Assembly (NCBI GenBank): GCA_030295235.1
Contig: AP026154.1
Coordinates: forward strand, 1-64,000
Direction of reading: 5' to 3'
Origin: Fistulifera solaris
Taxonomy: Eukaryota
DNA: 64,000 nucleotides
Shown here: positions 39,367-40,475 of the stretch, piece by piece
Numbering within the stretch: the stretch's first letter is position 1
How the letters are laid out: each line of letters begins with the position of its first letter
The notes under the pieces: generated by a model
Told to the model about the DNA's origin: nothing
Seen by the model: the letters and a program-made list of their open reading frames with translations, nothing else
Database searches by the model: none
Made by a program: the position numbers and the translations under genes

Positions 39367-40475
39367 ATGGCTGACCAATTGACTGAAGAACAGATTGCTG
39401 AATTCAAGGAAGCGTTCTCCTTGTTCGATAAGGACGGAGATGGTAAGAACGTCGAACGACTTCGCATCATTGTCATTTGAGGATTGTGATTGCTGCTGTG
39501 CGGTCGTCTGCGCGGCGTTGCTCCGAAGCGAATTTGCCGAAGTTTTGTTTACTTTTTCTTGTACGGATGAATTGAGTCGAACGAAAGATCGCTGAGTGAT
39601 AATCCTTTTCGCTGAGTCGTGCTGTAAGATCCTCACAACGACCGCCTGAGACTTCGCTTCAAGACTACAACCTCGATCTTTATTCTTTGTTGCGGTGACT
39701 GTGTAACTGAAACGTTTTTCTCACACTTAATTTCCATCAGGTACCATCACAACCAAGGAACTTGGAACTGTAATGCGATCGCTCGGTCAGAACCCTACGG
39801 AGGCGGAGTTGATGGATATGATTCAAGAGGTAAGAGGGATTGAATTGAGAACGTGCGGTCACAGTCCTAAGCGCAGGAAAGCTTACACATTCCGATTGTC
39901 TTTAGATTGATGCCGACGGCAGCGGAACTATCGATTTCCCCGAGTTCCTTACTATGATGGCACGAAAGATGAAAGATACTGATTCGGAGGAAGAGATTCT
40001 AGAAGGTAAGATGACGACCGCAGCTTAATGTGTCCATACTCTACTGTATTTCAAATCGATACTCACGCCCCACTCTTCTTCCCTTTCTACGTATCAAAGC
40101 TTTCAAGGTAAGGCGCTGCAAGCAGATCCGTTGCTCATTGGAATCGCGTAATTTTGCGAATCATCTCATGTCGATTTTCTCACCCTTTTCTTCTCTAAAC
40201 TTCGGTATCGCTGCAAAACGATAGGTGTTTGACAAGGGTACGTTTCGCTGTCTGCCTTGCTTTTCTTAATTTGTTTCTTGAAACTAGTATCTAACACACG
40301 TATTTTTACAGACGGAAACGGTTTCATCTCAGCTGCCGAGCTTCGTCACATCATGACCAACCTTGGGGAGAAGCTAACGGATGAAGAAGTTGATGAAATG
40401 ATTCGTGAAGCCGATATTGACGGAGACGGTCAGATCAACTACGAAGAATTTGTCAAGATGATGATGTCGAAGTAA
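39367..40475 (+). CDS. CaM: Calmodulin with six exons: 39367-39442, 39741-39829, 39906-40005, 40100-40107, 40225-40237, 40312-40475
   Basis: Spliced exons total 76+89+100+8+13+164 = 450 nt, giving a canonical 149-aa calmodulin [26 protein letters not shown]...[25 protein letters not shown]...FVKMMMSK. All five introns are GT-AG. Confidence 0.97.

Follow-up and report, generated by a model that had tools for sequence, protein, structure and literature searches.

We found that the window (the whole stretch of DNA analysed here, 64,000 nt) carries at 39367–40475, on the forward strand, a six-exon calmodulin gene whose fourth and fifth exons are only 8 and 13 nt long. The reading that best explains the evidence, to which we give a probability of roughly 85% on the basis of the sequence, is that this is a functional calmodulin gene from a stramenopile, most probably a diatom, in which exons 4 and 5 are real, constitutively included microexons. 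Joined by coordinate, the exons give a spliced coding sequence (CDS) of 450 nt including the TAA, translating into 149 amino acids (AA), and as far as the gene model itself is concerned the sequence leaves us near certain. The parts of the gene are given below, with codons counted from Met as 1 and with L numbers denoting related loci.

Exon 1, 39367–39442, forward strand: 76 nt, from the ATG at 39367 to the first base of the Gly26 codon.
Intron 1, 39443–39740, forward strand: 298 nt, GTAAGA..CAG, phase 1 in codon 26, a position used by many related loci.
Exon 2, 39741–39829, forward strand: 89 nt.
Intron 2, 39830–39905, forward strand: 76 nt, GTAAGA..TAG, phase 0 after codon 55, a position common to L007, L011, L013, L014, L018 and L027.
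Exon 3, 39906–40005, forward strand: 100 nt, from the EF-hand II loop to the first base of the Ala89 codon.
Intron 3, 40006–40099, forward strand: 94 nt, GTAAGA..AAG, phase 1 in codon 89.
Microexon 4, 40100–40107, forward strand: 8 nt, the rest of Ala89 and then Phe90 and Lys91, with AG before it (40098–40099) and GTAAGG after it.
Intron 4, 40108–40224, forward strand: 117 nt, GTAAGG..TAG, phase 0 between codons 91 and 92 at an AAG|GT site, a position common to L018, L027 and L035.
Microexon 5, 40225–40237, forward strand: 13 nt, Val92, Phe93, Asp94, Lys95 and the first base of Asp96, with TAG before it and GTACGT after it.
Intron 5, 40238–40311, forward strand: 74 nt, GTACGT..CAG, phase 1 in codon 96.
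Exon 6, coding part, 40312–40475, forward strand: 164 nt including the TAA at 40473–40475, the remainder of EF-hand III and EF-hand IV.

All five introns are of the GT..AG type, and their donors read GTAAGA (three introns), GTAAGG (one) and GTACGT (one). Exons 4 and 5 together encode exactly AFKVFDK; both are needed for the reading frame and for the conserved residues of calmodulin, and both fall within the definition of a microexon (an internal coding exon of ≤15 nt with AG before it and GT after it). The exons were recovered with a purpose-written protein-to-DNA spliced aligner, the optimum of which is exactly these six exons, and it can be read from the sequence that a one-base shift at any junction costs the GT or the AG.

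Degenerate motifs describing each microexon together with its flanks were searched for across the 64-kb window, and that of exon 4 matched twice (vs. 0.16 expected; 1/100 shuffles reaches 2), that of exon 5 once (vs. 0.00 expected; 0/100 shuffles). When the stretch between exons 3 and 6 was shuffled with dinucleotides and the outer GT and AG preserved, and then re-aligned (n = 400), the real alignment score of 220 was reached by none of the shuffles (maximum 211, mean 189.6). The aligner is a permissive one, placing a spurious small extra exon in 279/400 shuffles, and therefore only the complete, perfect recovery of all seven residues is significant. Coordinate joining, the spliced aligner and the shuffles thus bear out the earlier note, which had assembled a 450-nt CDS with the help of an 8-nt and a 13-nt microexon standing next to each other, each with AG before it and GT after it. 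Its statements on skipping also held up in silico: loss of either microexon alone breaks the frame and brings in a premature stop, while loss of both removes 21 nt in frame and with them AFKVFDK. Retention of any of introns 3–5 likewise leads to a premature stop upon in silico translation.

For protein-level searches we used the translation of L004, a related locus with an uninterrupted open reading frame (ORF), as a stand-in for the window protein, to which it is identical at 149/149 residues. Pfam EF-hand_1 (PF00036) matches this translation in four stretches (E 2.1e-41), and exons 3 and 6 of the window each match EF-hand models separately. Residues 1–149 are colinear with residues 1–149 of many solved calmodulin chains (E ~1e-87), with 12 differences counted on the alignment to a vertebrate-type solved chain, and from this likeness the encoded calmodulin would be expected to bind Ca2+ and to activate targets. 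The spliced protein is also identical (149/149) to the proteins of L011/L013 and L014. Between the window CDS and those of L004, L011/L013 and L014, 70–74 of 447 nt differ (a nucleotide divergence of ~16%); every one of these differences is synonymous, and the 21 bases of the microexons contribute 2–3 of them, again all synonymous. We count the absence of AA changes against 70–74 nucleotide differences as evidence for purifying selection on the calmodulin CDS, as judged from these alignments.

Among relatives with a name, the Cyclotella cryptica calmodulin model differs from the window protein at 4 residues, as do oomycete calmodulins, and a Cylindrotheca fusiformis entry (P0119, EukProt) differs at 1 residue and has an in-frame insertion. 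That insertion, of ~46 AA, sits exactly at the position of intron 1 in codon 26, as if the intron had been retained or left unspliced in the model. From these relatives we assign the gene to a stramenopile, probably a diatom. A full-length, uninterrupted calmodulin ORF, 91% identical to that of the window, was also seen in L001 (viral_contigs; match 2713–3159), which belongs to a giant-virus MAG bin and pairs in the CDS tree with the metagenome locus L037 (96/93); it could be virus-encoded, or it could be eukaryotic DNA inside the bin. Beyond L001, the scan of viral_contigs returned one weak match only. No second calmodulin was found within the 64-kb window, and another, intron-poor calmodulin copy elsewhere in the genome may carry the essential function.

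We scanned metagenome contigs with the exon 6 translation; at least 595 stretches matched, at least 316 were confirmed and 80 were kept. Calmodulin was aligned to all 80 loci by tblastn, and 44 loci that were non-colinear or cut by a contig end were passed to the spliced aligner. Residues 86–99 are encoded by one uninterrupted DNA stretch in 74 of the 80 kept loci (of at least 316 confirmed), and the loci in which this region is interrupted or partly unobservable are as follows.

L018, L027 and L035: a phase-0 intron between codons 91 and 92, just where intron 4 lies in the window.
L065: a phase-1 intron in codon 92.
L081: begins near codon 91 after a pyrimidine-rich tract, with upstream exons not found and the region partly unobservable.
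L058: begins at a contig end, with residues 86–99 partly unobservable.

An apparent intron next to codon 89 in L041 was dropped; the sequence upstream of it does not resemble calmodulin and possibly represents a start of its own.

The comparison of intron positions with other calmodulin genes, which the earlier note had suggested, was made over 80 metagenome loci (of at least 316): three of them have an intron where intron 4 lies, and none has one at the position of intron 3 or intron 5. No microexon was found in any of the 80 kept loci (of at least 316 confirmed), so that conservation of the microexons in orthologues failed on this sample. The closest genomic relatives among the kept loci are L014 and L011/L013 (the CDS of the latter two are identical and were counted as one); these have just two introns, one in codon 26 (phase 1) and the other following codon 55 (phase 0), and encode residues 56–149 in one exon. 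L007 has two introns at the same positions, and L003, L008, L009, L012 and L015 have the codon 26 intron only. L004, which has no poly(A) and whose contig starts 5 nt before the ATG, is either a cDNA or an intronless gene. When 23 CDS rows were placed in a maximum-likelihood tree, the window fell together with L014, L004 and L011=L013 (support 86/91, below the star threshold of the tool), all of which are without introns 3–5; the tree does not settle the branching order inside this group.

Several lineages that look unrelated (L018, L027, L035, L065, L081) have introns clustered on the boundary between codons 91 and 92 or no more than one base away from it. Such clustering suggests that introns have inserted repeatedly, or have slid, at the AAG|GT of these codons, and the positions taken together point to codons 89–96 of calmodulin as a probable local hot spot of intron presence.

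We reasoned that intron 4 would be the older intron of the three, its AAG|GT site bearing an intron in more distant lineages too, and that introns 3 and 5, which lie 8 and 13 nt to either side of it, would be lineage-specific. Judged by their distribution, introns 3 and 5 were more probably gained here than kept while every other lineage lost them; two gains beside an older intron are favoured because, across the 80 kept loci (of at least 316), both introns are unique to this lineage. It is possible, though we consider it doubtful, that the five-intron structure is instead ancestral and that the relatives lost introns 3–5 jointly, by recombining with a cDNA that was partly spliced or biased towards the 3' end. 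A single cDNA-mediated event of this kind could remove three adjacent 3' introns (reverse-transcriptase-mediated intron loss is cited in the excerpted text of PMC8831610), the position of intron 4 (phase 0, 91/92) does recur in L018, L027 and L035, and the order inside the closest group, left unsettled by the tree, would accommodate it. However, several independent losses would be required, and the positions of introns 3 and 5 are occupied in 0/80 kept loci (of at least 316), among them lineages outside the closest group. As for the source of the putative gains, there is no sign of an introner family, since nothing similar to the introns turned up in the window or the loci: blastn of introns 1–5 gave matches of 10–15 nt only against the 64-kb window, and three weak matches (E 0.018–0.062) against 82 loci.

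The splicing signals of the gene are ordinary ones. A branch-point-like YTNAY motif (CTCAC, CTTAC or CTAAC) lies 18–43 nt upstream of the acceptor in all five introns; in intron 3 it is a CTCAC 35 nt from the 3' splice site, with the last 40 nt of the intron 72% pyrimidine, and in intron 5 it is a CTAAC 18 nt from the 3' splice site. The acceptor of intron 3 is AAG, not YAG. Elsewhere in the window, two ORFs of a Vps4-like AAA ATPase (18135–18587 and 18696–19625, forward strand) appear to be joined by an intron within 18540–18720, of the form GTAAGT..AAAG with TACTGAC upstream; the putative junction was placed to fit the usual Vps4 sequence. This putative intron suggests that AAG acceptors are used elsewhere in this genome. 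No special RNA structure was found in 39990–40330 (z = +1.30; 90/100 shuffles fold at least as well), and with such a z structure-assisted exon recognition is not indicated.

How, then, might exons this small be included? Each of the short introns (74–117 nt) would be recognised singly, by intron definition, and introns 3, 4 and 5 would be removed one after another, because the 8 or 13 nt between an acceptor and the next donor leaves hardly any room for two spliceosomes. Products that skip a single microexon or retain an intron would carry premature stops and would presumably be cleared by nonsense-mediated decay. By analogy with the plant cases, intron definition with sequential removal is the probable course in this gene: for the 1-nt exon of Arabidopsis APC11 and the 9-nt exon of potato invertase, it has been argued, in the part of the source drawn on here, that the flanking introns cannot be removed simultaneously and that sequential intron definition or recursive splicing takes place (PMC4674806). 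In animals, short flanking introns are described as freeing microexons from the need for helper factors, in work on PRP-40/PRPF40A and neuronal microexons (PMC8378409, in excerpt), and such relief by short introns is in line with intron definition.

The earlier note had gone further and read the two microexons as one regulated cassette of 21 nt, the joint skipping of which would tune calmodulin dose or Ca2+ affinity at EF-hand III. The frame arithmetic permits this, since the exons of 8 and 13 nt each break the frame and the pair preserves it. The composite intron (40006–40311) that a double skip would remove is, at 306 nt, close in length to intron 1 (298 nt) and so physically plausible, and exon skipping has been reported in a diatom beside prominent intron retention (PMC5859163, in the portion consulted). 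Nevertheless, we regard regulation of this kind as very improbable. Regulated microexons are typically a multiple of three in length, and neither of these exons is; the introns around them are short, their splice signals ordinary and the RNA structure unremarkable (z = +1.30); and the architecture recurs in 0/80 kept related loci (of at least 316 confirmed), so there is no conserved regulatory module among them. Furthermore, by alignment to solved calmodulins, a double skip would remove Asp94, the first Ca-coordinating position of the EF-hand III loop, together with Phe90 and Phe93 of the preceding helix E. With the loop III Asp and two helix-E Phe lost, a misfolded C-lobe is likelier than a tuned sensor. 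A junction peptide of the double-skip type was present in 0/217 stored protein relatives, which is a weak test. We likewise place very little belief in the combined scenario, in which two introns were inserted 8 and 13 nt beside an older AAG|GT intron and the resulting 21-nt unit is conditionally skipped, yielding a calmodulin without a working EF-hand III that would modulate Ca2+ signalling.

The earlier note had also expected gene predictors to miss these exons. The exact 149-AA calmodulin, searched for through the identical L004 translation, is absent from a collection of 15 billion proteins, and a 269-AA protein of the same contig (P0218) is present in it; gene calls therefore exist for the contig without the correct calmodulin among them. 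This agrees with the expectation weakly, because the caller used may take no account of introns. Protein searches with calmodulin queries returned mostly multi-domain and extended calmodulins, and none with the exact sequence among the matches listed. Although the same absence from the protein collection is what one would see if the microexons were unused relics, within a single 306-nt intron or in a decaying copy of the gene, that account is almost certainly wrong: all 21 bases, both frames and the six flanking splice dinucleotides are intact and reproduced by 0/400 shuffles, the CDS has 0 non-synonymous vs. 70–74 synonymous differences to its relatives, and donor, branch-like and acceptor signals are kept in 5/5 introns.

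Turning to the neighbourhood, the 64-kb window has 44 stop-to-stop ORFs that reach 150 AA; together they take up 57% of it, and single ORFs of 1790, 844 and 697 AA are among them (these are ORFs, not gene models). Downstream of the calmodulin gene and converging on it, with stop codons ~295 nt apart, is a reverse-strand ORF (40771–41760) of 330 AA from the first Met, with a DOT1 histone-methyltransferase domain (PF08123, E 1.1e-12); upstream of it, also on the reverse strand, is an ORF of 391 AA (37353–38525) with a tRNA pseudouridine synthase domain (PF01416, E 2.3e-24). Two neighbouring ORF sets on the forward strand (50588–51493 and 52291–53254) have near-identical N-termini, MCFNQPISGFFAA..., and His/Asn/Gly repeats at the end; they look like a tandem gene duplicate with the second copy split over two frames. 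At the left end of the window, 19–723 on the reverse strand translates as a long (Gly-Leu)n followed by a (Val-Arg)n repeat, which indicates a microsatellite of dinucleotide type.

The earlier note had found five introns striking in a window where most genes seemed to have few. On the side of the window this stands, in that long single ORFs cover 57% of it by a rough, ORF-level check; on the side of calmodulin it does not, five introns being normal for calmodulin elsewhere. The abalone calmodulin gene, for example, is described as having five exons and four introns, with a first exon that consists of the start codon only (PMC6171432, in excerpt), and since four or five introns are what animal calmodulin genes have, a count of five is in itself unremarkable for calmodulin. 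For a diatom the density is nevertheless unusual, to judge from the average of 0.7 introns per gene given for Phaeodactylum tricornutum in the text excerpted from PMC5859163.

If our preferred reading of six exons with constitutive microexons is right, then in algal genomes with few introns even the gene for one of the best-conserved proteins of eukaryotes can conceal exons as short as 8 and 13 nt, and an annotation without these microexons would yield a broken or shortened calmodulin. The 470 nt from exon 3 to exon 6 would make a compact natural substrate for studying minimum exon size and the order of removal of packed introns in diatoms. If introns 3 and 5 were indeed two insertions, three introns in 21 bases would amount to a natural experiment on how short an exon may become when splicing proceeds by intron definition. 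We regard the microexons as a lineage-specific curiosity of a known kind, for which a regulatory role is unlikely. The literature library that we searched returned no paper on diatom microexons, and among the matches listed for calmodulin together with microexons none dealt with the calmodulin gene as such.

Set beside known systems, the gene shares with animal calmodulin genes a 149-AA CDS cut by four or five introns, and differs from that of abalone, for which the excerpted description mentions no internal microexons (PMC6171432). Like the microexons of animals that depend on PRP-40/PRPF40A, its tiny exons challenge exon definition; however, animal neuronal microexons are mostly alternative, tissue-regulated and frame-preserving, with long flanking introns (PMC8378409, as far as the consulted portion goes), whereas here the exons of 8 and 13 nt each break the frame, the introns are 74–117 nt long and inclusion is presumably constitutive. 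With the APC11 1-nt and potato invertase 9-nt exons it has in common exons too small for exon definition, but in those genes the sections at hand describe a single microexon (PMC4674806), and here two stand in tandem, with three introns within 21 coding bases. The nearest likeness is to the plant microexons of ≤15 nt, which were described in ten plant species as constitutive, encoding conserved residues and widely misannotated (PMC8831610, in excerpt): both are very small internal exons that lie within the CDS, have canonical splice sites, specify conserved residues and are easily missed. Plant microexons are ancient and conserved across land plants, according to the same excerpt, whereas those reported here lie in a stramenopile, recur in 0/80 kept loci (of at least 316) and are predicted from the DNA sequence. 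Even their adjacency has a counterpart in the Peptidase M1 genes of plants, which carry neighbouring microexons of 5 and 12 nt (PMC8831610, same excerpt), and since microexons of such shortness, adjacent ones included, are on record for plants, the calmodulin gene calls for no new kind of mechanism.
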